Shown here in pieces: positions 23,459 to 47,138 of a stretch of 64,000 nt of DNA. The DNA is taken from the NCBI GenBank assembly GCA_040219175.1, contig JAVJSY010000090.1:19386-83385 (forward strand), given 5' to 3'. The stretch's first letter is position 1, and each line of letters starts with the position of its first letter. The DNA is from Kiloniellales bacterium (GTDB lineage Bacteria; Pseudomonadota; Alphaproteobacteria; Kiloniellales; JACOMY01). The notes beneath the pieces are model-generated. The model searched no databases. It had not been told where the DNA came from and saw only the letters and a program-made list of their open reading frames with translations. The position numbers and the translations under genes are program-made.

Positions 23459-25744
23459 ATGTTCCGAGGACGCTGGGTGGGGTCTCTCATGCTATGTTGC
23501 GCTCTAGCCAGTTGTTCGTTTCTGCGGCCCTTGCCGCAACCCTCGTCATCCAACGAACGCCTTGCCGCGGTCCCGCAGCAAGACCTGCCGCTGAAGGGCC
23601 GTACCGTCATCTAATGGGACGAATACCAGATCCCCTTCATCGAAGCGGAACACGACGAAGACGCTGCCTTCGCGCTGGGCCTGGTGCAAGCCCACCTGAG
23701 GCTGGGTCATATGGAACTGGCGCGGCTGGTCTCGCAAGGGCGCCTTTCAGAGGCCATCGGATCCTCCACCGTGGACGTCGACCACGCGATCCGAACGATG
23801 GACTTCGACCGCGCCGTGCCGGAGACCGTGGCCTCCTTGCCACCCGACACGCGGGTCTGGCTTCAAGCCTACATCGACGGCGTCAACCACTATCTGATGA
23901 ACGTCGAGGACCTGCCGCAGGAGTTCAAGGTCGCCGGCCTGGAGCGGCAGCCCTGGACCATCGCGGATCTCTTGACCATCTCTCGGATTGGCGGGTCCGA
24001 TGCCAACTGGTCGGTCTGGATAACCTTGCTGAAGCTGCGCGAGCGCGAGGACTGGCCGCAGGTGTGGGCACGCATCGTCGAGACCGGAAGCGGCGCGCGC
24101 TCGACCTTCGACGGCATGGAGGTAGACGAGTTCGATTCAGTCCTGGGCGCCTACCGGCGTGCGGGTAGCAACGCGCTCGCCATCGCGCCGCAGCGAACCC
24201 GAACCGGAACGGCGCTCTTTGCCGCCGATCCCCACGTCGGCTATCTGGCGCCGACCATCTGGCTGCTGGCCGGGCTGAAGTCGCCCTCCTACCACGTCGT
24301 CGGGATCATGCCGACCGGCCATCCCTTCTTCGCGCTCGGCCGCAATCCCGTCGCCGCCTGGGGCGGCACCAACCTCTACGCTGCCTCCAGCAGCTTCTAC
24401 GACGTCTCGGCGGTCAGCGCCGAGGATATCAGCGTGCGTGTCGAACCCATTCGCGTCGGATCCGGCAGGACGGTCGATGTCGAGGTGCGCGAGACGGAGT
24501 ACGGGCCGATTATCTCCGACATCCCGCAGTTGCAGGGCTTCAATCTGCCCGACACGGCGCTCAAATGGGTGGGCCATCTGCCGAGCGACGAGACAAGCGC
24601 GATGCTGGCGGCCAACCGCGCCACCAGCTTCGAGGAATTCCGCGCCGCCTTTGGCCCCTACGCGGTCTCCAGCATGAACATGGTCTACGCCGATGTGAAC
24701 GGCAACATCGGCCAGATTCAGGCCGCACGCCTGCCCCGCCGCGAGCTCGACATTCCCGATGACATCGTCCGGCCGCCGCACGAGGTCGAGCCCTACTGGC
24801 AGAGCTTCGTCGATGCGACCGACTTGCCTGCTCTGCACAATCCGCCCCAGGGCTACGTCGCCACAGCCAACAATCGCCCGCCGCAGGGCGATGTCCCCGT
24901 CGGCATCTTCTTCTCCACCAACGACCGTATTACCCGTATCAACGAATTGTTCGCGGGCTGGGACAAGATAGGCGTCGAGGAACTGCAGGCGCTGCAGCAG
25001 GACGTCTACATGGCCGGGTCGGTCAGGCTGCGCGACGTCATGATCGCCAAGATCGACGAGCTTGGCCTCGCCAGGGGCGCCAGCACTGACGAACGCCAGC
25101 TGCTCGAAGAGGTGAGAGAGTGGGACGGCCACTACCGGGCAGAGTCGAAGGGTGCCTTGGCCTACGAATTGCTCCGTCGGGCAGTGATTGCCGCCAAAGC
25201 GGGCGAGGCCTTCGGGTCGGAGAACCTGACCGGCCTGACCGACGTGATCGGGGACGAGTTCAGCCTCGAAGCCTACCTTGAGGAAGGCAACCAGCGCGAA
25301 GTGGCCACGGTGCTGCGCAGCGCCATTGCGATGGGCGCAGAAGAGGCAAAGGGGAAGGCGGACTGGGGCTCGGTGCATCGACTGCAACTGGTCCATCCCT
25401 TCACCGCCATTCCGCTGGTGGGCGACCGGTACCGCTTCGGCGATGAGCCGATCGGCGGCAGCACCCAGACCTTGATGAAGTCGGGCCACAATCCCGGCGG
25501 CGAGGACTTCACTCCCTATCACGGCGCCTCGGCGCGGTTCATCTCCGACCTATCCGACCTCGACGCCAACTACTTCGTGCTGGTGGGTGGACAGGACGGC
25601 TGGCTGAACAGCGCCAATTTCCTAGACCAGATGCCGCTTTTCCTGGCTGGCGAGTACATCCAGCTTCCCTTGCGCTTGGAGAAGGTTCGCGCGCGCGCCG
25701 TGGAGACGCAGGTACTGAACCAAGGGGCGGGTGCGGTCAACTAG
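23459..25744 (+). pseudogene. Penicillin-acylase-family (Ntn-hydrolase, AHL/penicillin acylase-like) gene with one in-frame TAA
   Basis: The ATG at 23459 gives MFRGRWVGSLMLCCALASCSFL (lipoprotein-type signal), then ...LPLKGRTVI, then TAA at 23612-23614. The same frame continues WDEYQIPFIEAEHDEDAAFALGLVQAHLRLGHMELAR into the 686-aa track ORF (23684-25744). The nucleophile motif GSNALAI is present. Confidence 0.65.
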
Positions 25745-26178: not shown

Positions 26179-27357
26179 TCAGTAAGAGCGCGGCAAGCCC
26201 AGCACATGCTCGGCCAGATAGCTGAGAATGAGGTTGGTCGAGATCGGCGCCACCTGATAGAGGCGCGTCTCGCGAAACTTGCGCTCGACATCGTACTCCT
26301 CGGCGAAACCGAAACCGCCATGCGTCTGGATGCAGGCATTGGCCGCCTCGAAGGAGGCGTCGGCTGCCAGCATCTTGGCCATGTTCGCCTCGGCACCCGG
26401 ATTCTCGCCCGCCTCATAGAGCGCAAGGGCTTCCTTCACCATCAGTTCGGCCGCCCGCATGTTCGCATAGGCCTTGGCGATGGGAAACTGGATCCCCTGG
26501 TTCTGGCCGATCGGTCGGCCGAAGACCCGACGATCCTTGGCATAGCCAGAGGCCTTCTCGATGAACCACTTCGCATCGCCCACGCACTCCGCGGCGATCA
26601 AAATACGCTCGGCATTCATGCCCGAGAGGATATAGCGGAAGCCCCTGCCCTCCTCACCGATCAAGGAATTGGCGGGCACCCGGAGGTTGTCGAAGAAGAC
26701 CTCGGTGGTCGAGTGGTTCATCATCGTGCGGATCGGGTGGATAGAGATGCCATTGCCCAGGGCCGCGCGCATGTCGATGAGAAAGACGCTCAGCCCATCG
26801 CTGCGCTTCATGCCCTCGGTGATCGGCGTGGTCCGCGCCAACAGCACCATCAGATCGGAATGTTCGGCCCTGCTGGTCCAAATCTTCTGGCCACTGATAA
26901 CGAAATGATCGCCGTCGCGCTTGGCCGTGGTCTTGAGGGCCGAGGTGTCGGTGCCGCTGGAGGGCTCGGTTACGCCAAAGGCCTGCAGACGCAAGCGTCC
27001 TGCGGCAATGTCGGGCAAGTAGGCTTGCTTCTGTGCCTCCGAGCCATGTCGCAGCAGGGTCCCCATCGTATAGATCTGCGCGTGGCAGGCGCTGCTGTTG
27101 CAGCCGGCGCGCTGGATCTCCTCAAGCAGCGCTGCCGCCGCCGACAGCGGAAGACCGGCTCCGCCATAAGCCTCTGGAATCAAAACCGAAAGCCAGCCAG
27201 CCTCGGTCAGGGCATCGACGAAGGCCTCGGGATAGGCCATCTCGCGATCGAGCGCGCGCCAATAGGAACCCGGAAAGCGCGCACAGAGCTTGGCAACCGC
27301 GTCGCGAATGTCGGCATAGGGATCGGGTTCAACAGCCATCGGCATCTCCAGGAACAA
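26179..27357 (-). CDS. Acyl-CoA dehydrogenase family protein
   Basis: 392 aa with the ACAD N, middle and C domains recognisable (GVTEPSSGTDTSALKTTA, ISGQKIWTS). The start may be at one of the internal Met codons (MPMAVE). Confidence 0.85.
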   Translation of the reverse strand: MFLEMPMAVEPDPYADIRDAVAKLCARFPGSYWRALDREMAYPEAFVDALTEAGWLSVLIPEAYGGAGLPLSAAAALLEEIQRAGCNSSACHAQIYTMGTLLRHGSEAQKQAYLPDIAAGRLRLQAFGVTEPSSGTDTSALKTTAKRDGDHFVISGQKIWTSRAEHSDLMVLLARTTPITEGMKRSDGLSVFLIDMRAALGNGISIHPIRTMMNHSTTEVFFDNLRVPANSLIGEEGRGFRYILSGMNAERILIAAECVGDAKWFIEKASGYAKDRRVFGRPIGQNQGIQFPIAKAYANMRAAELMVKEALALYEAGENPGAEANMAKMLAADASFEAANACIQTHGGFGFAEEYDVERKFRETRLYQVAPISTNLILSYLAEHVLGLPRSY

Positions 27358-27582
27358 GCAAGGCGCATTTTCAGATCACCCGGCCTTCACCGCTAGAGGA
27401 TCGGGCAGGCGGCCGCCGCGAAGAAGCATCCCAGCTCCGCGGCATGACTTATGGTTCTAGGCCGATCACCCTGCGCAGCAATAGGTTATCGGCATAGCTG
27501 ATGGAGCAAAAGGATCGATGCTATCCATGGGGCGCAAGGCTAACCAGACAGAGACTGCTCACTGCATCGGGAGATTCGAATC

Positions 27583-28131
27583 GTGACGACACCTGCAGAA
27601 AGCCGCTTGGCGGGCCGCGATCTGGCCAGCGAGTGGCCGCAAGCGCTTTACGAGACCCTCAGCAAAGCCAATGTCCGCCACATGTCCTATGTGCCCGATG
27701 CCGGGCATACGACCTTGATTGGGCTTCTCGAGGCGGACAGCGCGGTCACCTGCAACCTGCTGACCAGCGAAGAAGAGGGCATCGCCATTGCGTCCGGCGC
27801 CTGGCTGGGTGGCCTGCGCAGCGTGGTGCTGATGCAGTCGTCGGGCGTGGGCAACTGCATCAACATGCTCTCGCTGCCGATCCAGGCCCGCATACCGCTC
27901 TTGCTGCTGGTGACCATGCGCGGCGAATGGGGCGAGTTCAATCCCTGGCAGGTCCCGATGGGACGAGCGACGCAGGCAGCACTGGAGGCCATCGGGGTGC
28001 GGGTATTCCGCAGCGAAACCGGCGCGGATCTGGTCGAGACCGTCGCCCAAGCAGCGGTCATGGCCTATGAAGCCGACCAGCAGATTGCGGTGCTGATCGG
28101 GCAACGCCTGCTCGGCAAGAAGAGATGGTGA
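27583..28131 (+). CDS. TPP-dependent decarboxylase, alpha (N-terminal PYR-domain) subunit; sulfopyruvate/phosphonopyruvate decarboxylase-like
   Basis: 182 aa, GTG start. The segment YVPDAGHTTLIGLL...SEEEGIAIASGAWLGG...VLMQSSGVGNCINML resembles ComD-type subunits. Confidence 0.7.
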   Translation: MTTPAESRLAGRDLASEWPQALYETLSKANVRHMSYVPDAGHTTLIGLLEADSAVTCNLLTSEEEGIAIASGAWLGGLRSVVLMQSSGVGNCINMLSLPIQARIPLLLLVTMRGEWGEFNPWQVPMGRATQAALEAIGVRVFRSETGADLVETVAQAAVMAYEADQQIAVLIGQRLLGKKRW

Positions 28132-28724
28132 CCGGCATGAGCGACACAACGATGGATCGCCGGGCGGCAGTCGCGAAGCTCTTGGCAGCACGCAGCGAGG
28201 CGCTGGTCGTCACCGGCCTGGGCTCGCCCAGCTACGACGCCCATGCCGCGGGCGACCGCGACGGCACCTACTATCTTTGGGGGGCGATGGGGGGCGCTGC
28301 CCTGCTGGGCCTCGGCCTGGCGCAGGCCCAACCGAAGAAGCAGGTGATGGTGATCACCGGTGACGGCGAGCAGCTCATGGCCTTCGGATCACTGGCAACC
28401 ATCGCAGTCGCCAAGCCCCGGAACCTCGACATCGTCGTGCTCGACAATCAGCACTATGGCGAAACTGGCATGCAGGAGAGTCACACCGGACGGGGGATCG
28501 ACCTCTGGCGCGTCGCGGAAGCCTGCGGCTTCGCCGAAACCGGTCTGGTGCAGACCCTCGCGGAGGTCGATCGCCTTTGCAGCGCCCTGAACGAACCCGC
28601 CGAGGGACCGCGCCTCTTCGTTCTCAAGATCAAGGCCGACAACCAAGCGCGCTCCCTACCGTCGCGCGATGCAGCCTTCATCAAGAACCGCTTTCGCGCC
28701 CACCTGGGGCTCAAGACCTGCTGA
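28125..28724 (+). CDS. TPP-dependent decarboxylase, beta (PP-domain) subunit
   Basis: 199 aa, overlapping the alpha-subunit stop. TPP motif ITGDGEQLMAFGSLATIAVAKPRNLDIVVLDNQHYGETG. Confidence 0.7.
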   Translation: MVTGMSDTTMDRRAAVAKLLAARSEALVVTGLGSPSYDAHAAGDRDGTYYLWGAMGGAALLGLGLAQAQPKKQVMVITGDGEQLMAFGSLATIAVAKPRNLDIVVLDNQHYGETGMQESHTGRGIDLWRVAEACGFAETGLVQTLAEVDRLCSALNEPAEGPRLFVLKIKADNQARSLPSRDAAFIKNRFRAHLGLKTC

Positions 28725-28752
28725 CGGCAAGACACCGGACTGTCGTCTGCCC

Positions 28753-29562
28753 TTATATATGGCCGTAAAAGTCCCTATGCGACGCAGCGGACCAAGCAAA
28801 GTCAAGCAGGGTTGACCAGGAGAAGACGGGTAGGCCGGTCGCCTGCTGTACCGCACGGCCGAAGGGCGGATAGCCGGTGCACTCCAGCACCATCGCCCCC
28901 AAGCGGGGCTCTGCCTTCTGCATGGCCAGGGCGGCTTCGACCATCTGCGCCTCGCAGAGATCGAAGTCGCAGCCGGGCGGATCGGGACGCTGACCGGCCG
29001 TCCCCCAGAGCTTGCGGGTCTCCGGCATGTCTGTCGAGGTCACGCAGTCGTAGAAGTTAAAGAGCCGATAGTTGGAGCCTAGGCGCACACCGACCGCTTC
29101 CAGGTGCGCATCGCTCAGCTCCTCCGGCCCGCCGGTGAAGACGCCGACCACCCTATCCGGACCGATCAGGGTCTGCGCCCAGCCGATCTGCAGCAGGCTG
29201 GACATGAAGACCGGGATTTCCAGCGCGGCTGCGACATGCCTTTGATAATAGGCAAAGAAGCCGCATTCGGCCGCGATCGCCCGACAGCCGTAAGTGTCCT
29301 GCAAGACCTTGGCAGCCTCGACGATCGGCCCGACGTGAGCGTCCAGATCCTTGTCCGGCCCGTCCACCAGGTTCCAGATGTCCAGGTCCTTGATCACCTG
29401 GTACTGGATGGGAAAGCCCCAGCCGCTGGCGTTGCGCACGTCTCCCGGAAAGCCCGGAAAGACATCGTCCAGCAGCAGGACACCCAGCCCGGCGCCATAG
29501 AGCAACTGGCCGGGCTTGGCACGGCTGTGGCGAAGGAAGCGGTCTTTGTTCATCGACTGCAT
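28753..29562 (-). CDS. Asp/Glu/hydantoin-racemase-superfamily protein
   Basis: 269 aa from the ATG at 29562 (MQSMNKD). The pattern GVLLLDDVFPGFPGDVRNASGWGFPIQYQVI...AIAAECGFF...MVLECTGYPPF is typical of this superfamily. The upstream part of the 586-aa track ORF is antisense read-through. Confidence 0.7.
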   Translation of the reverse strand: MQSMNKDRFLRHSRAKPGQLLYGAGLGVLLLDDVFPGFPGDVRNASGWGFPIQYQVIKDLDIWNLVDGPDKDLDAHVGPIVEAAKVLQDTYGCRAIAAECGFFAYYQRHVAAALEIPVFMSSLLQIGWAQTLIGPDRVVGVFTGGPEELSDAHLEAVGVRLGSNYRLFNFYDCVTSTDMPETRKLWGTAGQRPDPPGCDFDLCEAQMVEAALAMQKAEPRLGAMVLECTGYPPFGRAVQQATGLPVFSWSTLLDFAWSAASHRDFYGHI

Positions 29563-29579
29563 GTCTCTGTTTCCCAATC

Positions 29580-31115
29580 CTAAACGCCCAGTTCCGCACC
29601 GCCCTCGGCAGTACGGCGGACGGTAAACTGCTCGATTGCGGCCTTGGCCTCTTCCGCCATTGGCGGCGCGCGGTACTCTCCAAGCGCGCGCCGATAGATG
29701 CCGTGCGCGCGCGTGGTCGCGTCCTCCGCACCAGCTTCCTGCCAGGCTTCGTAGTTCGTCGTGTTGGTGATCAGCGGGCTGTAGAAGGCTGTCTCGAAGC
29801 TCTCGATCGTCCTTTCGGTACCGAAGAAATGCCCACCCGGGCCGACCGAACGAATCTCCTCGATCGAGAGGACGTCTTCGTTCACCGGAACGGGCTGCAG
29901 CCAGACCGCCATCATCTGCAGGATCTCGACGTCGAGGATGAACTTCTCGAAAGAGGCGCAGAGGCCGCCCTCCAACCAGCCGGCGGCATGCATGACCACG
30001 TTGGTGCCGCCGGTTACGGCCGCCCAGAGCGAACCCTGGGCTTCGTAGAGCGCCTGCGCATCGGGCAGATTGGCGTTGTTGAAATTGGCAGCCCGGAAAG
30101 GCAGGCCGATGTGGCGGGCAAGCTGTGCGCCGATCTGGACCGCCTTGTTCGATTCCGGCGTGGCAAAGGCCGGCGCACCGGTCTTCATGTCGACATTCAC
30201 CGTCTTGGCAGCGGTGACGACCGGTGCACCCGGACGCACCAGTTGCGCCAGCACGACACCCGCCAGCGCCTCGGCACTGGACATGGAGACAGCAGCTGCC
30301 AGGGGAACCGGCATGGTAGCACCGGCCAGCGAGAAGGGCGAGATCAAAGCCACCTGGTTGTGCCGTGCCAACTCGATGACCCCGGCTGCCATGGGGCCGT
30401 CGTACTGCAGCGGAGAGTTGGTGTTGATGATGGAGTAGGTACGCGGCCGCTCGACCAGCGCCTCGCGTCCCTCGAGCCCCAGGCCCAGCGCCACCAGGTC
30501 CAGCCCGTCCCACAGTCGCTGTCGGCCTTGTGCGAAGAGATAAGGCACCTTGTCGGAGAGCGTCAGCATGGTGCGCGTGCTCTCCAGATGGCGGATTTCC
30601 ACCGGCACGTCGTTGGGCTCGACCGGTGAGCCGGCGATCATGTGAATGATGTTGAAGTATTGGCCCAGGCGCACGAAGTCGGCGAAATCGGCGAGCGTGC
30701 CGGGACGCCGGCCGCGGTCCAGGTCGGAGCAGTTGGGCGGCCCCAGCACGGTCGAGAAAGCCAGTGCATCGCCGCCGATCTCCACCGCCTTCGCCGGGTC
30801 GCGCGGTGTCAGGGTGAAGCAGCTGGGCGCGGTGGAGAGTGCCTGGGTCACCAGCTCCTCGCCGATGCGCACCCGGCCCTGCCCATCGACGGGCGCGCCG
30901 GCCGCGCGAAAGATCGACAGCGCCTCCTCGTCGTTGAAGACGATCCCGATCTCCTGCAGGATGCGCAACGAGTTGCGATGGATAGCGGCGATCTGGTCGG
31001 TAGAGAGGATCTCAACGAAGGGCGCGCGCAGGCGCAGTTGCGACCAGGCCAGCTGCTCGATCGGCAGCGCGCGGCGGTCCGGGGTGCGCCGACGGCGCGT
31101 TCTGGGCGACGCCAT
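29580..31115 (-). CDS. MttB-superfamily methyltransferase, non-pyrrolysine type
   Basis: 511 aa from the ATG at 31115. Homology runs the full length of the trimethylamine-methyltransferase family (for example SIINTNSPLQYDGPM, VMHAAGWLEGGL, GPGGHFFG). There is no in-frame TAG. Confidence 0.8.
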   Translation of the reverse strand: MASPRTRRRRTPDRRALPIEQLAWSQLRLRAPFVEILSTDQIAAIHRNSLRILQEIGIVFNDEEALSIFRAAGAPVDGQGRVRIGEELVTQALSTAPSCFTLTPRDPAKAVEIGGDALAFSTVLGPPNCSDLDRGRRPGTLADFADFVRLGQYFNIIHMIAGSPVEPNDVPVEIRHLESTRTMLTLSDKVPYLFAQGRQRLWDGLDLVALGLGLEGREALVERPRTYSIINTNSPLQYDGPMAAGVIELARHNQVALISPFSLAGATMPVPLAAAVSMSSAEALAGVVLAQLVRPGAPVVTAAKTVNVDMKTGAPAFATPESNKAVQIGAQLARHIGLPFRAANFNNANLPDAQALYEAQGSLWAAVTGGTNVVMHAAGWLEGGLCASFEKFILDVEILQMMAVWLQPVPVNEDVLSIEEIRSVGPGGHFFGTERTIESFETAFYSPLITNTTNYEAWQEAGAEDATTRAHGIYRRALGEYRAPPMAEEAKAAIEQFTVRRTAEGGAELGV

Positions 31116-31119
31116 CCGG

Positions 31120-31962
31120 CTAAGCCTCTGCCAGAGCGGGCGCGAGGCCCAGAATGGCGCGCGCCTCGACCGGGCTGGCCGGGTGGCGGTCATAGTCGGC
31201 GCAAAGTGCGGCGACGCGGGCCACCAGTTCTGCATTGCTCTCCGCCAGGCGCTGCTTGTCGTAGCGGATGTTGTCCTCCAGCCCGGTGCGGCAGTGCCCG
31301 CCCATCTCCAGCGCCCAGTGGTTGACCTCCAGCTGATGGCGGCCCAGGCCGGCGGCGGTCCAGGTGGCGCCGGGCAGCAGCGCCTGCATCTCCGCAACTT
31401 CGAAGGCCAGGATCTGCCGCCTGGCCGGCTGCGCGCCCTTGATCCCCATCACGAACTGCAGGTGCGGCGGTGTCGTCAACAGCCCCTCGGCCACCAGATC
31501 GGCGGCGTTGTAGAGCATGGCCAGGTCGAAGATCTCACACTCCGGCTTGATCCCCTCCTCCAGCATCTGCGAGGCCAGCGCGCGGATAAACTGCGGTGGG
31601 TTCTCGTTGACGAAGGTCGGAAAGTTGACCGAGCCGGTGGCCAGCGAGGCCATGTCGGGGCGCAAGTGCAACATCCCGCCCCGCTGCTCCAGTGCACGGC
31701 CCCGCGCACCGGTGGAGAACTGCACGATCATGCCCGGACAGTGCTTGCGGATGCCGGCCTGAACGGCGGCGAACAAGTCCGGATCGGAGGAGGGCCTCTC
31801 CTCGCCATCGCGGACATGAATGTGAACCAGCGAGGCGCCGGCTTCGAAGGCGGCATGAGTCGATTCGATCTGCTCGCTGACGGTGACCGGCACCGCCGGC
31901 GTGTCGGCCTTGCGCGGCACCGAGCCGGTGATCGCGACCGTGATGATGCAGGCTGTGGTCAT
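31120..31962 (-). CDS. BKACE-family beta-keto acid cleavage enzyme (3-keto-5-aminohexanoate cleavage enzyme-like, DUF849)
   Basis: 280 aa from the ATG at 31962, which overlaps the SDR stop (ATGA). IITVAITGS, LVHIHVRD (HxH metal site), CRTGLEDN. Confidence 0.8.
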   Translation of the reverse strand: MTTACIITVAITGSVPRKADTPAVPVTVSEQIESTHAAFEAGASLVHIHVRDGEERPSSDPDLFAAVQAGIRKHCPGMIVQFSTGARGRALEQRGGMLHLRPDMASLATGSVNFPTFVNENPPQFIRALASQMLEEGIKPECEIFDLAMLYNAADLVAEGLLTTPPHLQFVMGIKGAQPARRQILAFEVAEMQALLPGATWTAAGLGRHQLEVNHWALEMGGHCRTGLEDNIRYDKQRLAESNAELVARVAALCADYDRHPASPVEARAILGLAPALAEA

Positions 31963-32762
31963 AATTCCTCCAGATCTGGCAGCGTGTCGGGGACCGGGAC
32001 GGTGTAGTTGAGATGGGCCCGGCCGCCATCGGGGTAGAGGGTTTGGCCGGTGACGTAGGAGGCCTCGTCGCTGGCCAGGAAGGAGACCACGGCGGCCACC
32101 TCCTCGGCCCGGCCGAGCCGCCCCATGGGCGTGCGCGAGAGGATGCGCCGATAGGCAGCCTCGTTCTTTCCAAGCCCCGCTGTCAGCGGAGTGAGGATCG
32201 TACCCGGCCCCACCGCATTCACCCGCACGCCCTTGTCGGCGAGCGCAATGGCGAAGATACGGGTCAGCTGATTGATTCCGGCCTTGGAGATGCCGTAGGG
32301 GACGCGGTCCGGGATCGCCAACTCGGCTTGGGCGGAGGACATGTTGACGATGGCGCCGCTGCCTTGGGCGACCATCACCTTCGCAGCCTCCTGCGTACCC
32401 CAGAAGGTCCCCTTGAGGTTGACGTTCAAGACCCGGTCCAACTCGTCTTCGCTGAGCTCGAGCGCTGCCGTGCTGCAGGAGACCGCGGCGTTGTTCACCA
32501 TGATGTCCAAGCGGCCGAAGCGCTGCACCACGGCTTCGACCAGTCCGACCACAGCAGTGCGGGAGCCGACATCGCAATCCAGCGCTACGGCGCGCGCGCC
32601 GTCGGGATCAAGTGCGGCTGCCCGCCGAACCGCGGCATCCCCTTGCACGTCGGAGAAAACGACCGTGGCGCCCTCGCGAAACAGCAGCTCGGCGCAGGCC
32701 GCGCCGATCCCCTGCGCCGCACCGGTCACCAATGCGATTTTGCCGTCATGGCGCATGCTCAT
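31959..32762 (-). CDS. Short-chain dehydrogenase/reductase
   Basis: 267 aa. TGAAQGIGAA, NNAAV, and YGISKAG in the catalytic region. Confidence 0.85.
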   Translation of the reverse strand: MSMRHDGKIALVTGAAQGIGAACAELLFREGATVVFSDVQGDAAVRRAAALDPDGARAVALDCDVGSRTAVVGLVEAVVQRFGRLDIMVNNAAVSCSTAALELSEDELDRVLNVNLKGTFWGTQEAAKVMVAQGSGAIVNMSSAQAELAIPDRVPYGISKAGINQLTRIFAIALADKGVRVNAVGPGTILTPLTAGLGKNEAAYRRILSRTPMGRLGRAEEVAAVVSFLASDEASYVTGQTLYPDGGRAHLNYTVPVPDTLPDLEEL

Positions 32763-34315
32763 CCCTCCTCTTTGCCGAAACCGCCGCCGCCGCCGGTCTC
32801 GATTGAAATCAGGTCTCCACGGTTCAGCAGATGCTGGCCGGAGGCCGGCAAGACCTGGTCGTTGATCCGAAAGCTGGCTGCTTGCCCCGCCGCACCGCCC
32901 ATCAAGCCGGGCGCCGGACAGCGCACCCGGTTCACCATGAAGGAGGCGATTGCCGGGACCTCGCCCAGAAAGCGGAAACCGAAGGAGATACCGTCGCCGC
33001 CGCGCTGCCTGCCGGCCCCGCCGGATCCCCGCCGGATCGACCGCTGCAACACCTCGATCGGTGCTTGGCCTTCCATCACCTCGATCGGCGTGTTGGAGAG
33101 GTTCGAGGGAAAGCTGACGGCACTGGCGCCGTCCTGGCCGCCGCTCGCCCCTTGTCCGGCGCCCAGGAAGGCATTGACGGCATAGTGGGCCCCGGCGCCC
33201 AGGCTGGCGATCTGCAGATTGTTCGAGGGCGAGCCGGGTGCAGCCTGCACCCGCTCCGGCAGCGCCTCTGCCAGTGCCCCGAAGATGGCCGGAGGCAGCA
33301 GGTGTCCGATCATCCCGCGTGCGCCGCAGGGTGCCGGGCGGCGTGGGTTCAGGATCGAGCCCTCGGGCGCCCTCACCTCGATCGGTCGAAAGGCGCCCTC
33401 GTTGTTCGGGATCCAGGGCGCAAAGAGCGCCTTCAGCGCGTAGGCAGAATAGGCGAAGGTGTAGTTCAAGACCGTGTTGATCGCCAACGGCAGCTGCGGG
33501 GAAGAGCCCTCGTAATCCACCGTCACCCGCTCACCGGCGATGGTGACGCGCACACAGATGGTGACCACGCCCCCCGGCAGTTCCTCCGGTCCATCGTTCT
33601 CGATCCGATAGCGCCAGGAGCCGTCCGGCGCCTCGGCAATGGCACGTCGCATCGCCGTTTCGGTGCGCGCAATCACCTCCGCGGCGAAGACCTCAAGATC
33701 GATCTCCATCTCGTCCAGCAGGCCGTTCAGGCGCTGCCCCAGGGACTGCACGCAGGCGACCATGGCCCAGACGTCGCCCAGGGTCTCGTCCGGGACGCGC
33801 ACGTTCCGGCGCAGCAGCCGCACCAGGGTCGCATCCTCCTCGCCGGCCCGCAGCAGGCGCATCGGCGGAATCTGGAAGCCTTCCTCGAAGAGCTCTCTAT
33901 TCGCCGGGTTGCGCAAACGGCCACCAATATCCGGCAAATGACTGACCACGCCGGCGAAGGCCACGACCCGGCCGTCGCGAAAGATGGGGCAAGCAATCGA
34001 GGCGTCGTTCAGGTGGCCGGAGCCGTGCCAGGGGTCGTTGGTGATGAAGACATCGCCCTCGCGCATACTCTCGAGACCATGCTCTTCGATGAAGACGCGG
34101 ATCGTAGCCGGCATGGTGGCGATGAAAGAGGGGATCGACTGCGAGGACTGCGCCAGGCTGCGCCCCTCGGCATCGGTCAGGACCACCGCGTAATCGTTGG
34201 CCTCTCGCACCAGGGTGGAAAAGGAGGCGCGCACGAAGGCGGCAGCTGCCTCGTCGACAACACTCACCAGGCGAGTCCAGAGGATCTCGATGGCGATGGG
34301 ATCGAGCCGCGTCAT
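32759..34315 (-). CDS. hyuB: Hydantoinase B / oxoprolinase-family protein (HyuB)
   Basis: 518 aa. Typical N-terminus DPIAIEILWTRLVSVVDEAAAAFVRASFSTLVREANDYAVVL. Confidence 0.85.
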   Translation of the reverse strand: MTRLDPIAIEILWTRLVSVVDEAAAAFVRASFSTLVREANDYAVVLTDAEGRSLAQSSQSIPSFIATMPATIRVFIEEHGLESMREGDVFITNDPWHGSGHLNDASIACPIFRDGRVVAFAGVVSHLPDIGGRLRNPANRELFEEGFQIPPMRLLRAGEEDATLVRLLRRNVRVPDETLGDVWAMVACVQSLGQRLNGLLDEMEIDLEVFAAEVIARTETAMRRAIAEAPDGSWRYRIENDGPEELPGGVVTICVRVTIAGERVTVDYEGSSPQLPLAINTVLNYTFAYSAYALKALFAPWIPNNEGAFRPIEVRAPEGSILNPRRPAPCGARGMIGHLLPPAIFGALAEALPERVQAAPGSPSNNLQIASLGAGAHYAVNAFLGAGQGASGGQDGASAVSFPSNLSNTPIEVMEGQAPIEVLQRSIRRGSGGAGRQRGGDGISFGFRFLGEVPAIASFMVNRVRCPAPGLMGGAAGQAASFRINDQVLPASGQHLLNRGDLISIETGGGGGFGKEEG

Positions 34316-36375
34316 GCCGCGACCTCCTCCAGCAGGACTTCGATTGTCGCATCATCCAAGACCCTGACATCGGCGGGGCGCGCGATCACCAAGGTCGATT
34401 CCGCCTCGCAGATGACGCAAGGGCCGCGCAGGACGCATCCAGGCAAGAGGCAGCCGCGGTCGTACTCCGGCACCGAGGCAAAGTCGCCCTGGTCGGGTAG
34501 ATAGATCGAGCGCGCGCGCGCTGTCCTCTCTTTTGTCTGTGCAGTTTCGGCCAAGCGATAGCGACGGAGGCCAAGCCCGGCGAGCCCCCAGACTCGCCAG
34601 GTAACGGCCTCCGGTAGGCCGCCGGGAACGGTCACGCCGAAGACCTCGGCATAGGCCTCCAGAAAAGCCGCTTCCAGATCGCTCGCGTTCGGTGGCCGAC
34701 GTGGGTCGATCGCCACCTCGACGTTGGCGCCCTGGCCGCGATAGCGCAGCTCCGCTGCCGCTTGCAGGCTGTCGGCGGCCATACCGCTATCCGCCAGCTC
34801 GCGCTCGATCTCCTGACAGGCCTGGTCCAGACGCGCTTTCAGAAAAGCATGATCGAGGTCCTGCAGCATCTCGATCCGCGACCAAGAGCGATCCGCTCTG
34901 GCGGGTGCGGCAAGGAAGCCGAGGCAAGAGCCGACACCGGAGGCGATCGGGCAGAGGATGCGGCGAATGCGCAGCCGTCTGGCGACCTCGACCGCGTGCA
35001 AGGGACCAGCGCCACCCGTGGCGACCAGCGCGAAACCTCTTGCGTCCAGCCCCTTCTCGGCGATGTGGGTGCGTGCCGCCGAGGCCATGGCCTCGTTCAC
35101 GATGTCATGGATGCCCCAGGCAGTCGCAAGCGCATCCAAGCCGACCTCTGCGCCGACACGGGCCAGGGCCGTGCGCGCCTGCTCGGGATAGAGCCGCATG
35201 CGTCCGCCCAGGAAACCATCGGGGTCGAGGTAGCCCAGCAATAGATCGGCATCGGTGACCGTGGCCGCCTCCCCGCCTAGGCCATAGCAGGCCGGGCCCG
35301 GCTCGGAGCCGGCACTCTCCGGCCCGACCTTCAAGAGGCCGAGCGCGTCGCAGCGGGCGAGCGAGCCGCCGCCGGCGCCGATCTCGATCAGGTCGATGGA
35401 GGGCGCGACGGCCGGCAGGCCGCTGCCCTTCTTGAAGCGTTTCTCGCGGGCGAACTCGAAGACATGGGTGATGTCCGGTCGCCCCTCGACCGCGACGCAG
35501 GCCTTCGCCGTCGTGCCGCCCATGTCGAAGGCGAGTACCTGCTGGGCGCCCTGTGCGCCGGCGCAGTTGATGGCACTGATGACGCCGCCGGCCGGCCCCG
35601 ATTCCAGCAGGCGGATGGGATAGCGGGCGGCCTGTTCTGCCGTGGTGAAGCCGCCGTTCGACACCATGATGTCGAGCCGCCCTGCGATGCCGAGCCGACC
35701 CAGACGCTCCTTCAGGCTATCCAGATAGCGCTCGACCAGCGGGCGGACATAGGAGTTGGCCGCGGTGGTGGACATGCGCTCGTACTCGCCGATCTCACCG
35801 GCAACCTCGGCCGAGAGCGAGACCGGCAGGTCCGGCGCCTTGGCCGCCAGCGCCTGGCGCACCTGTTGCTCCTGACGAGCGGAAACGGGTGCGTGCAGCA
35901 GACAAACGGCCACCGAGAGAACGCCGCTGTCGGCGATGGACGTCGCAAGCGCCTCCAAGTCCTCGCTGTTGGCTGCCTGCCATTCGCTGCCGTCCGGCCC
36001 CATGCGAACGGCCAGCTCGAAACGGTCCCCGCGCGCAACCAGCGCCTGGGGATAGGTCAGTCCCAGGTCGTAGGTGTCGTAGCGCAGCTCCCGCCCGATA
36101 TCGAGCGCGTCGGCCATACCGCAGTTGGTCACAAGCGCCGTGCGCGCGCCCTTGCGTTCCAGCAGGCTGTTGGTGATCAAGGTGGTGCCGTGCACGACCT
36201 GCCCGACTGTGCCGTCTTGCGCAGCAAGCAGGTCCTCCGCGACCCGTGCGAGTCCCGCGCCGGGGTCGGCAGGCGTGGTCAGAGACTTTGCAAGCCGGAT
36301 CCGTCCGCTCTCCGGCTCCAGCAGCACACCGTCGGTGAAGGTGCCGCCAATGTCGATGGCAATGCGCAGGCTCAT
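34312..36375 (-). CDS. hyuA: Hydantoinase A / oxoprolinase-family protein (HyuA)
   Basis: 687 aa. IAIDIGGTFTDGVL and FDMGGTTAK (ASKHA ATPase motifs). Confidence 0.85.
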   Translation of the reverse strand: MSLRIAIDIGGTFTDGVLLEPESGRIRLAKSLTTPADPGAGLARVAEDLLAAQDGTVGQVVHGTTLITNSLLERKGARTALVTNCGMADALDIGRELRYDTYDLGLTYPQALVARGDRFELAVRMGPDGSEWQAANSEDLEALATSIADSGVLSVAVCLLHAPVSARQEQQVRQALAAKAPDLPVSLSAEVAGEIGEYERMSTTAANSYVRPLVERYLDSLKERLGRLGIAGRLDIMVSNGGFTTAEQAARYPIRLLESGPAGGVISAINCAGAQGAQQVLAFDMGGTTAKACVAVEGRPDITHVFEFAREKRFKKGSGLPAVAPSIDLIEIGAGGGSLARCDALGLLKVGPESAGSEPGPACYGLGGEAATVTDADLLLGYLDPDGFLGGRMRLYPEQARTALARVGAEVGLDALATAWGIHDIVNEAMASAARTHIAEKGLDARGFALVATGGAGPLHAVEVARRLRIRRILCPIASGVGSCLGFLAAPARADRSWSRIEMLQDLDHAFLKARLDQACQEIERELADSGMAADSLQAAAELRYRGQGANVEVAIDPRRPPNASDLEAAFLEAYAEVFGVTVPGGLPEAVTWRVWGLAGLGLRRYRLAETAQTKERTARARSIYLPDQGDFASVPEYDRGCLLPGCVLRGPCVICEAESTLVIARPADVRVLDDATIEVLLEEVAA

Positions 36376-36380
36376 GGGAA

Positions 36381-37466
36381 TCAGGCGCCGATCGTAAAAT
36401 GGGTGAAGGCCGCAGCCTCGCTGCGTGCCTTGGCCAAGGCATTGGCTAAGGCCGGCGTGACCAAGATGCCGTTTCGCTCTGCCTCTCGTCTTGCTGCTGC
36501 CGCCCGCGCGCCCGGCAGGCGGACCGGGCTGTCGGCCTCGACCGGCTCTACGGATTCGATGGCCGCAGCGATCTCGGCGACCCTATCGGACAAGGCAGCG
36601 GCACCGCCGAAGGCCTCGGGATCGAAGGCAAGGAAGAGGTGACTGACGTCGGCGGGCTGGCTGCTCGGGTCCTGCGGTGGCCTGACCTCGGCGCCGAGCG
36701 CACCGCCGGAGAGCGAGACGCAAAGCAGTTCCACCAGCAGGCAGAGCAAGGTCCCCTTGGCGCCGCCTAGCGCCTGCATGCTGCCCTGAAGTGCCGCTTC
36801 GGCCGAGGTCGTCGGCTGGCCCTCGGCATCGAGCGCCCAGTCGGCCGGTATCTCCTCGCCCGCTGCCGCCGCCTTGCGTATGCGGGCGCGCGAGCCAAGC
36901 GTGCTGGCAAGATCGATGACCAGCGGCTGGCCGTCTGCGCGCGGAAAGCCGGCGGCGATGGGATTGGTCCCGAAGAGGGGCTGACGTCCGCCGCGCGGCG
37001 CAACGCTGGGCGAGGCGTTGGAAAAAACCAGGCCGACCTGCTGCTGGCCGAGCATGCGATGGACGAAGTAGGAGGCCACGCCGAAATGGCCGGAATTGCG
37101 CACGGCAACGGCCCCCACCCCGGCCTGCTTCGCCAAGGCGCTCGCCCGGTCGGAAGCCGCAAGAGCTGCCAGGATGCCCGGTGCCTGCTCGGCATCCAGG
37201 CTGGCGGCAGCCGCGCGCTCTGCGGTAAAGACAAAGCGCGGTCGGGGATTGAGCGCAGAGCGCCTAAGGCCATTGAGGTAGGCAGGCAGGTGCATCAAGC
37301 CATGGCTGTCGATGCCGCTGGACTGCGCGAAGACCAGGCAGTCGGCCATAGCACGAGCGTCATCGCTGCGAAGGCCCGCGTGCACCAGCAGACTGGCGGC
37401 GAAGCCGGAAAGCTGGGCGATCCTGGCGCGTTCTCCGGACATTGGCGTCAGTGGCAGCGAGGGCAT
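36381..37466 (-). CDS. Ldh_2-family (malate/L-lactate dehydrogenase type 2) NAD(P)H oxidoreductase
   Basis: 361 aa. DSHGLMHLPAYL, AVRNSGHFGVASYF, FGTNPIAAGFP. Confidence 0.8.
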   Translation of the reverse strand: MPSLPLTPMSGERARIAQLSGFAASLLVHAGLRSDDARAMADCLVFAQSSGIDSHGLMHLPAYLNGLRRSALNPRPRFVFTAERAAAASLDAEQAPGILAALAASDRASALAKQAGVGAVAVRNSGHFGVASYFVHRMLGQQQVGLVFSNASPSVAPRGGRQPLFGTNPIAAGFPRADGQPLVIDLASTLGSRARIRKAAAAGEEIPADWALDAEGQPTTSAEAALQGSMQALGGAKGTLLCLLVELLCVSLSGGALGAEVRPPQDPSSQPADVSHLFLAFDPEAFGGAAALSDRVAEIAAAIESVEPVEADSPVRLPGARAAAARREAERNGILVTPALANALAKARSEAAAFTHFTIGA

Positions 37467-37469
37467 GGT

Positions 37470-38396
37470 TCAGCCCACCCCTTCCAGATCATAGACCGGG
37501 CTGATCCAGCCATGGTCTCGCGCGCTGTCGCCCAAGGTTGCCGAGAAGTAGGCCTGCTGCAGCAGCCGGGTGACGGGACCAACGGCGCCCCTGCCGATCG
37601 CCAGTCCGTCCAACGCGACGATCGGCAGAACCTCGGCAGCCGACCCGGCAAAGAAGAGCTCGTCGGCGGCATAGAGTTCGCTGCGATCGACGCTGCGTTC
37701 CTCAACTGCGATGCCGTTCTCGACAGCCAGTGTCAGGACCGTTGCCCTGGTGATGCTCTCCAGAATCCCGCTGGTCTGGTCCGGAGTCACCAAGCGACCC
37801 TTGCGGACGAGAAAGAGGCAGGCGCCCGGCCCCTCACCGACCTTGCCGGCTTCGTTCAGCATGACTGCATCGTCGTAGCCATCGGCCCTGGCCTGAAAGC
37901 GGGCAAGCCGTGCGTTGGCATAGTTCGCACCGCACTTGATGCGCGGCGGCATGGCATTGTCGGAGAGGCGCCGCCAGGAAGAGATCTGGGCGCGAATGCC
38001 GCTCTCGACCTTGGCCGAGCGCGGTCTCGCCCCGGCATAGACCATCCAGCTGACCGGACCGGCAACATGGTGCTCGGAGGCTTCGGCCAGATAGGCGGTC
38101 GCACGAATGTGGCAGTTCTCGCGATGCCCATGGGTCCGAAGCAAGGTGACGATGGCGTCGCCCACCGCCTCCACCTCAACCTCCGGGGCAAAGCGCAGCA
38201 GCTTCATCGATTGCGCCAAGCGCTCCAGGTGTTCTTCCAAGCGAAAGATGTAAAGCTGTTCCTCTTTTGGATTCCAGTAGGCGCGCAGGCCCTCGAAGAC
38301 ATTGAGGCCATAACGCATGGCGGCCGACATCAGGTGCACGGTCGCCGCCTCATAGGGCACCAGAGCCCCATTCACGATCATGGGTTTCTTGCTCAT
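37470..38396 (-). CDS. Class IV (branched-chain/D-amino-acid) aminotransferase, copy 1
   Basis: 308 aa. FEGLRAYWN, AMPPRIKCGANY, CLFLVRKGRLVTP, ILESITR. Confidence 0.85.
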   Translation of the reverse strand: MSKKPMIVNGALVPYEAATVHLMSAAMRYGLNVFEGLRAYWNPKEEQLYIFRLEEHLERLAQSMKLLRFAPEVEVEAVGDAIVTLLRTHGHRENCHIRATAYLAEASEHHVAGPVSWMVYAGARPRSAKVESGIRAQISSWRRLSDNAMPPRIKCGANYANARLARFQARADGYDDAVMLNEAGKVGEGPGACLFLVRKGRLVTPDQTSGILESITRATVLTLAVENGIAVEERSVDRSELYAADELFFAGSAAEVLPIVALDGLAIGRGAVGPVTRLLQQAYFSATLGDSARDHGWISPVYDLEGVG

Positions 38397-38806
38397 GACG
38401 AAGCCTCCCTATCGGCCAGCCGAAAGCGGGCGAGCCACAGCCCTTCCTCTTCTTCGAGCGCGAGGGACACGCGGGCGCCGACCGCAAAGCCTTCGCCCTC
38501 GGCGGAATCGATGATGTTGGTCAAGAGGCGCGGTCCTTCGTCCAGCTCGACGATGGCGACGTTGTAGGGCAGGCGCTCTTTCAGATGATCGGCATAGGCT
38601 TGGCGATAGACCACCCAGGAAACCAGGCGTCCCTGCCCGCTCGACACCGCCCAGCCCGGCTCCGGCGCCAGGCAAGCGGGACAGGCAGCGCGTGGCGGCA
38701 GCCAGGCCGTATCGCAGGCAGAACAGCGCTGAAACTGCAATCGGCCCTCCGCGAGGCCCTCCCAATAGGCGCGGTTCACCTCGGTGATCTCGGGGTGCGG
38801 GATCAT
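38393..38806 (-). CDS. DUF35 Zn-ribbon/OB-fold protein (thiolase partner)
   Basis: 137 aa. Zn ribbon CSACDTAW...CPAC followed by an OB-fold region. 4-nt overlaps on both sides. Confidence 0.8.
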   Translation of the reverse strand: MIPHPEITEVNRAYWEGLAEGRLQFQRCSACDTAWLPPRAACPACLAPEPGWAVSSGQGRLVSWVVYRQAYADHLKERLPYNVAIVELDEGPRLLTNIIDSAEGEGFAVGARVSLALEEEEGLWLARFRLADREASS

Positions 38807-39933
38807 GTCGGCTGTCCCAGAATCAAGGTCGCGTGGGTGTGCATCGAGCCGCCTTGGTTGGAGACGATGCAGGTCTTCGGGTCGCGCACCTGCAGGCGGG
38901 CATCGCCGCGCATTTGGCGCGTGCCCTCGATCACCAGCTGCAGACCCGGCGTGCCACTTTCCGATAGCAGACCGCCCGAGGTGTTGAGCGGCAGGGCGCC
39001 CTCCGGCCCGATCCCCTCGGCCAAGGCGAAGGCGCCGGCCTGGCCGCGCGGAGCCAGCCCGTAATCCTCCATGGTCTGCAGCACGGTGACGGTGAAGCAG
39101 TCGTAGAGCTGGGCAACATCGATGTCTTCCGGCCCCACGCCCGCCATGCGATAGGCGGTATCGGCCGAGACCTCGGCCATGGTGTGGGTGAGGTCCGGGC
39201 GCAGGTGCACGTCCCAGCTTTCCTGCCCCTGGCCGAAACCCAGGATGGGGACGGCTTGCGTGAGTCCAAGCGCGCGCGCCCGCTCGGCGCTGGTCACGAT
39301 CACGGCCGCGCCGCCGTCGGAGACCAGGCAGCAGTCGTCGCGCCGCAGCGGATCGATCAGCAAACGGCTCTCAAGATAGGCCTCCATCGACAGCGCCTGG
39401 CGCAGGTGCCCGGCCGGATTCTCCAGACCGTTCGCGCGGGTCTGGACGGCAACGGCGCCGAAATGCGTGTCGGGCGGCGTGTAGCGCTGCTTGTAGGCCT
39501 GGTGGATCATGGCGTAGCCAGCCGCGGTCGCATACCAGCCATAGACCGCATCGTCGCCGCGCGGCCGGTGATAGACCGCGCGAGAGCCGCTGCGCGGCGT
39601 GTCGCCATAGCAAATCAGCGCCATCTCCATCAGCCCGGCTTCGATCGCCATGGCTGCATAGGAGATAAGCGCGATGTTGGCGGCCCCGCCCTGATCCAAG
39701 GCCCCCCCCACACGTGGGCGCAGGCCCAGGGCCTCGGCCACCTTCTGGCCATAAAGGATCGAGGGCGCGGAGTTGGCCATCTTGACCAGCACGCCGTCCA
39801 GGCTGTCCTTCTCGATGCCCGCGTCGGCGACCGCATTGCGCGCGGCCTCGACGATCAGGTCGATGCGCTCGCGTCCGGGATGCTTGCCATAGCGGGTATG
39901 GCCGACGCCGGCGATGACCGCGCGCCCGCGCAT
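38803..39933 (-). CDS. Thiolase-superfamily protein (SCP-x/non-specific lipid-transfer-type thiolase)
   Basis: 376 aa. AVIAGVGHTRYGK and NTSGGLLSESGTPGLQ. Paired with DUF35, as is usual for this subclass. Confidence 0.8.
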   Translation of the reverse strand: MRGRAVIAGVGHTRYGKHPGRERIDLIVEAARNAVADAGIEKDSLDGVLVKMANSAPSILYGQKVAEALGLRPRVGGALDQGGAANIALISYAAMAIEAGLMEMALICYGDTPRSGSRAVYHRPRGDDAVYGWYATAAGYAMIHQAYKQRYTPPDTHFGAVAVQTRANGLENPAGHLRQALSMEAYLESRLLIDPLRRDDCCLVSDGGAAVIVTSAERARALGLTQAVPILGFGQGQESWDVHLRPDLTHTMAEVSADTAYRMAGVGPEDIDVAQLYDCFTVTVLQTMEDYGLAPRGQAGAFALAEGIGPEGALPLNTSGGLLSESGTPGLQLVIEGTRQMRGDARLQVRDPKTCIVSNQGGSMHTHATLILGQPT

Positions 39934-41893: not shown

Positions 41894-41898
41894 GGCGC

Positions 41899-46595: not shown

Positions 46596-47138
46596 CTAAT
46601 ATTGCATCATCGCCCAAGACTCCACGAACCAGTCGACAAGCGCGGCGGCGAAGCTGGTCGGTATGAGCAGGCGAAAACGCTCTGGCGACAGCCGGTGAAC
46701 AAGGATGCTCGCGTCGTGCAGCCGGGTCTGCGCAAAGGCGCCGGGGGTTAGGCCTGCCGGTCCCAGATCGATCGCTATCCCGCGGGTCAGAAGAGAGACC
46801 GCCTCGCTGCCGTCGAGATCGAGGATGCGCTTGGCGTGACCGATGTCGCTGACCGCTCCGTCCTGCCCGACGGCAGACCGGCATTCCTGCAGCAGCGGTC
46901 GCGCCCGATCGCTCAAGAGCAGCAGGCGGTCCGGCGCGATGCGATAGGCCCAACCGTCAGGGAATCCGGCAACCTGCCGGCCGTCCGCAGGCATTTCGAA
47001 CGCCAAGGCTTCTGCCAGCCGCAATGCGGCCGCGCCGCGCGCACCACGCCAGAAGCCGACCTGCACCAGCGGTCGGCAGGGTTGGAGCTGCAGCTGAAGG
47101 GCGGCGCCCTGGTCTAGGATGCTATGCCTATCATCCAC
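46596..47138 (-). CDS. soxG: Sarcosine oxidase gamma subunit
   Basis: Position after soxA. I chose the GTG at 47138 (VDDRHSILDQ), which overlaps the soxA stop (GTGGATGA). About 180 aa fits SoxG size. The upstream part of the track ORF overlaps soxA. Confidence 0.65.
   Translation of the reverse strand: MDDRHSILDQGAALQLQLQPCRPLVQVGFWRGARGAAALRLAEALAFEMPADGRQVAGFPDGWAYRIAPDRLLLLSDRARPLLQECRSAVGQDGAVSDIGHAKRILDLDGSEAVSLLTRGIAIDLGPAGLTPGAFAQTRLHDASILVHRLSPERFRLLIPTSFAAALVDWFVESWAMMQY

Follow-up and report, generated by a model that had tools for sequence, protein, structure and literature searches.

The 64,000-nucleotide stretch of a Kiloniellales bacterium genome analyzed here (assembly GCA_040219175.1, contig JAVJSY010000090.1, positions 19,386 to 83,385; hereafter the window) encodes a 511-amino-acid, non-pyrrolysine member of the MttB methyltransferase superfamily (29580-31115, minus strand; hereafter MttB) that has no corrinoid partner gene beside it. 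Our verdict is that the mechanism is ordinary, the family member is new, and the operon is what is of interest: MttB is the second-to-last of 19 genes, and both this operon, for a methylated amine, and the racemase-like companion gene that ends it (X269) appear to be undescribed. Taken whole, the best model, which we rate as somewhat better than even, has a corrinoid-dependent MttB with unlinked, shared partners, followed by demethylations by a dimethylglycine dehydrogenase (DMGDH)-like enzyme and a Sox-type oxidase, transamination, CoA-dependent breakdown, and cleavage by a beta-keto acid cleavage enzyme (BKACE).

The family assignment of MttB is clear. Its match to PF06253 (COG5598; 601.7 bits) covers positions 3-500 of the 500-position profile, i.e., the full length of the family, and it matches PDB entries 4yyc (335 bits, 38% identity) and 2qne (312 bits); the glycine betaine methyltransferase MtgB of D. 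hafniense is 36% identical to it. The open reading frame (ORF) begins with ATG, comprises 511 codons with no internal stop, and ends in TAG, and its score against TIGR02369, the pyrrolysine-containing trimethylamine methyltransferase, did not reach the cutoff (277.5 versus 525 bits), so a preliminary description of this DNA was correct in calling it a non-pyrrolysine homolog with no in-frame TAG. The stop codon itself (29580-29582) is TAG, the pyrrolysine codon in true MttB hosts; nothing suggests that it is read through, and X269 has its own ATG 17 nt later. Directly upstream lie the genes for BKACE (280 amino acids; 31120-31962; PF05853, 321.7 bits), of the 3-oxoadipate-type clade, and for a short-chain dehydrogenase/reductase (SDR; 267 amino acids; 31959-32762; PF13561/PF00106) that reached no specific NCBIfam equivalog. 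As the preliminary description stated, the BKACE start overlaps the SDR stop (ATGA) and only 4 nt separate BKACE from MttB, which, in a packed operon, ties MttB transcriptionally to both. Its view of MttB as “fused into an SDR-BKACE module” stands insofar as these genes are coupled but was too narrow: the unit is the 19-gene operon (including X269, which it had missed), and SDR occurs without BKACE and MttB in one related locus (L109; see below). A separate gene call on a Logan contig yielded identical products of 511, 280, and 265/267 amino acids. The exact MttB protein is on record solely on one Logan contig of 8.9 kb, and a megablast search of positions 27000-37000 against plasmids returned short hydantoinase matches only and no annotated close relative.

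All searches for a corrinoid partner within the window came back empty, as the preliminary description had reported. Approximately 58 ORFs were called by GC3 bias and scanned against Pfam, and none matched a B12-binding domain (PF02310/PF02607), a PF00809/MtrH methyltransferase, or a RamA-like activase. Likewise, a six-frame scan found no match to the corrinoid motif DxHxxG..SxL..GG, tblastn with a genuine corrinoid protein as the query found no match at an E value of ≤1, and an Rfam scan found no cobalamin riboswitch. As a positive control, the motif scan and tblastn both detected the corrinoid gene beside MttB in the anaerobe Desulfoluna (L017; loci are given by L numbers throughout). The adjacent corrinoid gene of the MtxB-MtxC-MtxA-RamA operons of anaerobes is thus lacking from the window, and it is lacking from the orthologous loci as well: neither scan found a corrinoid gene in the flanks of any alphaproteobacterial MttB homolog examined (L002-L016, L019-L020), nor was there one within ±15 kb of the MttB locus on pSymA of S. 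meliloti.

In the aerobe Ruegeria pomeroyi, glycine betaine demethylation cannot proceed without the cobalamin-binding protein MtgC and the methyltransferase MtgD, which also serve together as a split methionine synthase and whose genes lie away from those of the PF06253 proteins SPO2108 and SPO2134, MttB-family proteins on separate ORFs (Mausz et al. 2025, PMC12478193). Up to 7 PF06253 paralogs were reported in genomes having one mtgC and mtgD, and the authors suggested that the paralogs channel other methylated compounds into a shared MtgC/MtgD core; no Rhodospirillales or Rhodovibrio are listed in their supplement (PMC12478193). Because that study proposes an unlinked, shared core and the loci examined here agree with it, we read the missing corrinoid neighbor as normal in aerobes and as already explained in the literature. 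A partnerless MttB is therefore no evidence for a different mechanism, as the preliminary description had entertained; of the two options that it raised, corrinoid components encoded elsewhere in the genome is the most likely, by its match with the proposal for aerobic Alphaproteobacteria.

The operon that contains MttB is compact, with 18 junctions ranging from -8 to +88 nt, 8 of which are overlaps, and all of its genes lie on the minus strand. In order of transcription, it begins with the subunits of a heterotetrameric SoxBDAG-like oxidase (gene calls taken from L116): SoxB (50208-51458), which scored above its subfamily cutoff (TIGR01373, 590.8 versus 529 bits); SoxD (49935-50198), a clear Pfam match; SoxA (47131-49938), slightly below its cutoff (TIGR01372, 1089 versus 1164 bits); and a SoxG-like protein (46596-47138) with a weak match (E value of 0.006). 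The next gene encodes an FAD- and folate-dependent oxidative N-demethylase of the DMGDH family (805 amino acids; 44090-46507) with DAO, FAO_M, GCV_T, and GCV_T_C domains and a score of 586 bits to human and rat DMGDH (PDB 5l46/4p9s). It is followed by AT4b (43142-44080), a class IV aminotransferase resembling branched-chain aminotransferases (BCAT; PF01063; TIGR01122, 248.7 versus 245.55 bits), and by genes assigned with Pfam to an acyl-CoA dehydrogenase (ACAD; 41899-43086), an enoyl-CoA hydratase (ECH; 41120-41893), a family III CoA-transferase (39933-41117), a thiolase-like protein (38803-39933), and a DUF35/ChsH2-OB protein (38393-38806). The best NCBIfam likenesses of this CoA module (38393-43086) are mesaconate and glutarate CoA-transferases, glutaryl-CoA dehydrogenase, and PaaF; the CoA-transferase, ACAD, and ECH are nearer to these dicarboxylate-type enzymes than to CaiB, CaiA, and CaiD, respectively, with every score below cutoff. 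A second BCAT-like class IV aminotransferase, AT4a (37470-38396; PF01063), passes the ilvE equivalog cutoffs. Next comes an Ldh_2 family oxidoreductase (36381-37466; PF02615), for which a role as a Pip2C/Pyr2C reductase lacks specific support, its score to DpkA being 135 bits versus 181 bits to a generic type-2 malate/lactate dehydrogenase. HyuA (34312-36375) and HyuB (32759-34315) form a pair of the ATP-dependent hydantoinase/oxoprolinase/lactamase type (PF02538, PF01968, PF05378) with only weak NCBIfam similarity to caprolactamase, and SDR, BKACE, MttB, and X269 (28753-29562) complete the operon. A CocE/NonD (S15) hydrolase gene (51593-53635, plus strand; PF02129, PF08530; TIGR00976, 211 bits) lies next to the operon and is transcribed divergently from it.

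The operon is syntenic in no fewer than six further genomes or contigs of Alphaproteobacteria; OY770023.1 and OY770029.1 are among the carriers. The whole gene order is kept in Rhodovibrionaceae bacterium A322 (GCA_052078155.1; L005, L108), in three Rhodospirillales metagenome-assembled genomes (MAGs; L002, L003, L111), and in the Alphaproteobacteria MAG F4-SAH-03 (L004), and a metagenome lineage (L026/L110) keeps the order minus HyuAB only. Protein identities across the syntenic loci go down to about 50-80%, and MttB relatives at ≤62% identity have different neighbors. The S15 hydrolase holds the same position in L108, L110, L111, and L116 and is also found in L109. This last locus (ERZ25072999 ctg322072, 873063-893980) is a core-only variant that encodes S15, HyuBA, a thiamine pyrophosphate (TPP) enzyme, IclR, the genes from AT4b to SDR, SBP_bac_5, and DAO, and it is without Sox, DMGDH, BKACE, MttB, and X269. 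Genes just upstream of the operon in the window match the content of L109: SBP_bac_5 (53863-55470), IclR (55697-56482), DAO (56590-57807), and a TPP enzyme (57804-59423). Because the five missing functions are jointly absent from this single locus, where the remaining genes persist, together they look like a single addition to a core pathway. A shared operon, conserved synteny, and joint absence from L109 together bear out the link of MttB to the DMGDH-like and Sox genes that had been proposed. Moreover, MttB and DMGDH-like genes are paired repeatedly in loci of otherwise unrelated context (L010, L012, L019/L020, L069, and S. meliloti pSymA), which supports a role of MttB as a demethylase.

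What MttB demethylates can be narrowed from its alignment with MtgB, whose glycine betaine site consists of Y97, R312, H348, and F356 (Picking et al. 2026, PMC13080624). R312 is kept in every characterized member; these enzymes all act on acidic quaternary amines and all methylate cob(I)alamin (PMC13080624). In MttB, the four positions are L, R, H, and G, a pattern common to its orthologs in L004-L009. The glycine betaine motif is therefore not conserved as such: the Arg and His contacts to the carboxylate are retained, and both aromatic residues are gone. With the carboxylate-binding half kept and the aromatics lost, the substrate is probably not glycine betaine but another methylammonium compound with a carboxylate group, and the embedding of MttB in a 19-gene operon with CoA-dependent carbon-skeleton enzymes likewise makes glycine betaine improbable. 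Nε-trimethyllysine, pipecolate betaine, and gamma-butyrobetaine were each considered as the substrate, and we favor none of them; each fits some of the operon genes, and none fits all.

According to the model that we favor, MttB would be a cobalamin-dependent quaternary-amine:corrinoid methyltransferase, i.e., the substrate-specific “MT1” component, most likely taking the first methyl group off a trimethylammonium compound that bears a carboxylate. The corrinoid protein, the methyl-corrinoid:tetrahydrofolate methyltransferase, and the reactivation proteins would probably be encoded elsewhere in the genome and would also serve other MttB paralogs and methionine synthesis, on the pattern of MtgBCD in aerobic Alphaproteobacteria. 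The second and third methyl groups could then be transferred oxidatively onto folate by the DMGDH-like enzyme and the SoxBDAG-like oxidase, X269 would probably interconvert the D and L enantiomers of the betaine or its N-methylated products, and the freed amino group would be taken by the two BCAT-like transaminases. The remaining carbon skeleton may be processed by the CoA-transferase, ACAD, ECH, thiolase-DUF35, SDR, and BKACE, with acetoacetate and a succinyl-CoA-like thioester as predicted end products. Several observations weigh against this model. The aromatic residues that hold the trimethylammonium group in MtgB are replaced (Y97 by Leu, F356 by Gly), and the binding of a quaternary amine by MttB is assumed. 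The model leaves the roles of HyuAB, Ldh_2, and thiolase-DUF35 unaccounted for, and HyuAB is dispensable in one lineage (L026/L110). The corrinoid protein, the pterin methyltransferase, and the activase are all absent not only from the window but also from the 10 kb to its left, where only transporters, SDRs, and one amidase were found. Lastly, the covariation argument depends on one locus lacking the genes (L109), and equivalog-level assignments within the operon are limited to BKACE and the two BCAT-like transaminases.

The proposed system resembles MtgBCD(E) of R. pomeroyi and S. meliloti (PMC12478193), in which a PF06253 methyltransferase of an aerobic alphaproteobacterium likewise lacks adjacent genes for the corrinoid protein and tetrahydrofolate methyltransferase, several paralogs occur per genome, and DMGDH- and Sox-type genes serving the subsequent demethylations often lie nearby. 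It differs in that the MttB of the window falls in another clade (36-38% identity to MtgB and 4yyc), has Leu in place of Tyr97, and is part of an operon with CoA-dependent carbon-skeleton enzymes. D. hafniense MtgB (PDB 2qne/9yce; PMC13080624) likewise shares the fold family, Arg312/His348, and the lack of pyrrolysine with MttB, whereas MttB has Leu and Gly in the positions of Y97 and F356, no adjacent MtgC or MtgA, and an aerobic host.

An alternative that follows the carnitine-type logic of the preliminary description would have SDR oxidize carnitine or another beta-hydroxy betaine to 3-dehydrocarnitine, BKACE convert this with acetyl-CoA to betainyl-CoA and acetoacetate, and MttB, DMGDH, and Sox take the resulting glycine betaine to glycine. 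We consider this route unlikely, although several observations speak for it: SDR, BKACE, and MttB are translationally coupled; BKACE, MttB, DMGDH, and Sox are present together in at least six loci and absent together from L109; the DMGDH-like protein closely resembles true DMGDH; and an SDR and BKACE pair is known to act on a beta-hydroxy acid in deoxyribonate catabolism (bioRxiv 10.1101/205583). Its main weakness is the type of BKACE. Identity to the BKACEs adjoining carnitine 3-dehydrogenase was only 29.3% (Rhizobium ruizarguesonis) and 31.0% (Leisingera caerulea), compared with 55.8% to the BKACE of the Phaeobacter pca operon (pcaC-pcaH-pcaG-BKACE-CoA-transferase-pcaD) and 69% to a Caballeronia homolog; the protein passed the NCBIfam equivalog NF053568 (3-oxoadipate:acetyl-CoA acetyltransferase) with 455.2 bits against a cutoff of 350, and its nearest PDB entry is 3no5. 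A dehydrocarnitine-cleaving BKACE was accordingly rejected, and with it the carnitine-type reading of this enzyme. Furthermore, Pfam scans of the called ORFs revealed no carnitine 3-dehydrogenase in the window and no HADH-type carnitine dehydrogenase, BCCT transporter, or betainyl-CoA thioesterase in the operon, the glycine betaine contacts Y97 and F356 are not kept in MttB, and 11 of the 19 operon genes would be left without a role.

Compared with the annotated cdh-type carnitine clusters on R. ruizarguesonis p3 and L. caerulea plasmids, the operon is thus alike in having a BKACE that would yield acetoacetate and an acyl-CoA, and possibly in an upstream dehydrogenase, and it differs in the low identity of that BKACE, in having an SDR rather than an HADH-type dehydrogenase, and in its lack of a BCCT transporter and a GlxA regulator. 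The BKACE of the beta-ketoadipate pathway (NF053568; the Phaeobacter inhibens pca operon; PDB 3no5/3chv) is alike in sequence (56-69% identity, equivalog passed) and differs in context, the gene in the window being coupled to SDR and MttB and not being part of a pca (protocatechuate) operon. Our best guess for the BKACE substrate is a beta-keto dicarboxylate, i.e., 3-oxoadipate or an analogue; given this context outside the pca operon, the physiological beta-keto acid may be 3-oxoadipate itself or a substituted analogue.

The last gene of the operon, X269, encodes 269 amino acids and begins 17 nt downstream of MttB, which it follows in every syntenic locus. The protein has no Pfam match (including no significant match to PF01177), scores slightly below the cutoff of NCBIfam PRK07475 (227.3 versus 231 bits), and gave only chance matches in a profile search against PDB sequences. 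Its AlphaFold2 model (pLDDT of 81), however, is predicted by Foldseek to have an Asp/Glu-racemase fold: the top matches were arylmalonate decarboxylase and glutamate, aspartate, and hydantoin racemases (probability of 1.0, TM scores of 0.5-0.6), along with maleate isomerase. Among 20 homologs, the motifs ECG (C100) and ECTG (C228) were invariant and PGFPGDxRNAS was shared. In the model, C100 and C228 directly follow predicted strands 93-98 and 221-226, one in each half, consistent with the two-domain fold and one Cys after a strand in each domain of the Asp/Glu/hydantoin racemase superfamily.

The X269 subfamily was sampled through its 80 best metagenome loci (L026-L105; 49-74% identity), 35 of which had at least 1.6 kb on both sides. 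Of these 35 well-flanked loci, 32 had an MttB-family gene at most 8 kb from the X269-subfamily gene, 23 of them at most 400 bp away, and as many as five MttB paralogs occurred in a single locus; the same pattern was seen in two of three genome loci sampled. Conversely, X269 occurs in 4 of 17 genome loci holding relatives of the window MttB. On Ruegeria and Leisingera plasmids, the X269 homologs are more distant (33-38% identity) and lack an MttB neighbor, so the linkage is limited to the closer subfamily. Other recurrent neighbors in X269 loci include Cys/Met pyridoxal phosphate (PLP) enzymes, PALP enzymes, class I/II aminotransferases, and Opp-type transporters; a protein of approximately 424 amino acids without a Pfam match also recurs in 9 of the 80 X269/MttB loci (e.g., L044 5754-7028). 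Arg312 is absent from most of the MttB paralogs beside X269 homologs (L030-L105, e.g., L047 3640-7984 and L068 243-7726); the patterns at MtgB positions 97/312/348/356 in these paralogs are SFHG, PMHA, SFHA, and TWHG, although an alignment at approximately 25% identity may be imprecise. The loss of Arg312 suggests that these paralogs act on substrates that are not acidic or differ in some other way. No paper was found on the link between the X269 subfamily and MttB or on MttB with BKACE, and this genomic link, strong as it is, is apparently undescribed.

Since PLP enzymes cannot racemize quaternary amines, we propose that X269 may racemize betaines or N-methyl amino acids by a two-base mechanism. 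A broader and tentative claim, to which we give less than even chances, combines two ideas: X269 would represent a novel racemase that needs no cofactor and acts on amino-acid betaines or N-methyl amino acids, and the operon would break down a quaternary amine that has not so far been recognized as a growth substrate of bacteria. A cofactor-independent betaine racemase of the enolase superfamily, HpbD, was reportedly described in proline-betaine and hydroxyproline-betaine catabolism by Zhao in 2013 and Kumar in 2014. That catabolism would be alike in its logic of a racemase, a first demethylase, a flavin N-demethylase, and an Ldh_2-family reductase, and it would differ in that the racemase in the window has the Asp/Glu-racemase fold and in that the pathway reportedly employs a Rieske demethylase, not MttB. 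In S. meliloti pSymA (L106, CP140953.1 697009-728475), an MttB homolog 48% identical to that of the window lies between a LysR gene, itself beside a DMGDH-like gene, and a GlxA regulator, with a glycine betaine ABC transporter, an MR/MLE-family racemase, and an Ldh family oxidoreductase further downstream and Rieske oxygenase genes upstream; a non-homologous racemase and an Ldh family oxidoreductase thus occupy a place analogous to that in the window.

Two further alternatives concern the place and the chemistry of MttB and X269. The first, which we regard as improbable, is that both are a recent add-on outside the main pathway of the operon and that MttB might be inactive or not a methylamine enzyme; L109, which retains the core genes without MttB, X269, BKACE, DMGDH, and Sox, and the replacement of Y97 and F356 are in keeping with it, whereas the tightly coupled SDR-BKACE-MttB-X269 order, maintained to approximately 75% protein identity in at least six lineages, and the conservation of Arg312 and His348 in the orthologs argue against it. 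The second, which is more doubtful still, would dispense with the corrinoid: MttB would hand the methyl group straight to tetrahydrofolate or a thiol, and X269 would be its real partner, e.g., through a cysteine acting as a methyl acceptor or relay. The close linkage of X269 to MttB, the lack of a corrinoid gene in most X269 loci, and three invariant cysteines in X269 would fit, and betaine-homocysteine methyltransferase, in which a thiolate attacks the methyl group of betaine, offers a precedent. Against it, five X269 loci (L040, L041, L050, L060, and L063) encode genuine corrinoid proteins, so X269 is no replacement for them; the occurrence of X269 in merely 4 of 17 genome loci means that it is not a general requirement of MttB; and two-base racemases, decarboxylases, and isomerases share its fold. 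The requirement for the corrinoid core in R. pomeroyi genetics (PMC12478193) and the methylation of cob(I)alamin by all characterized members (PMC13080624) point the same way. Demethylation of quaternary amines by MttB and X269 without a corrinoid protein, specifically with the X269 cysteines as methyl acceptor or relay, is in our estimate highly improbable.

Beyond the operon, split TPP decarboxylase genes (27583-28724, plus strand) that resemble the alpha and beta parts of sulfopyruvate/phosphonopyruvate decarboxylase converge on its end; the Logan contig from this organism has them, and the syntenic loci L002-L005 do not. The window is also rich in hydrolases of amides and esters (penicillin amidase, gamma-glutamyltranspeptidase, amidase, CN hydrolase, and polysaccharide deacetylase; at 23684-25744, 59644-61260, 61934-63361, 11661-12497, and 13069-14127) and has two Opp/Dpp-type ABC systems, which hints at a region dedicated to nitrogen compounds that are peptide-like or amide-linked. 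A 508-amino-acid protein with seven matches to RTX calcium-binding nonapeptide repeats (16036-17562, minus strand) is unrelated to the operon.

The substrate range of non-pyrrolysine MttB proteins is an open question in the one-carbon metabolism of gut, marine, and soil environments, and few members have known substrates. The operon described here is complete, conserved, and present in at least one genome not labeled as a MAG (Rhodovibrionaceae bacterium A322), and because its MttB is wired to two follow-up demethylases and a full carbon-skeleton pathway, its substrate should be experimentally findable. The current view of the MttB mechanism is left unchanged unless the low-probability corrinoid-independent reading is true, in which case MttB and X269 would constitute a new mechanism of aerobic betaine demethylation. 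The near-obligate linkage between the X269 subfamily and MttB offers a new way to mark out a subclass of MttB systems and suggests chiral betaines as important substrates; the X269 subfamily may be an unrecognized component of many MttB systems.

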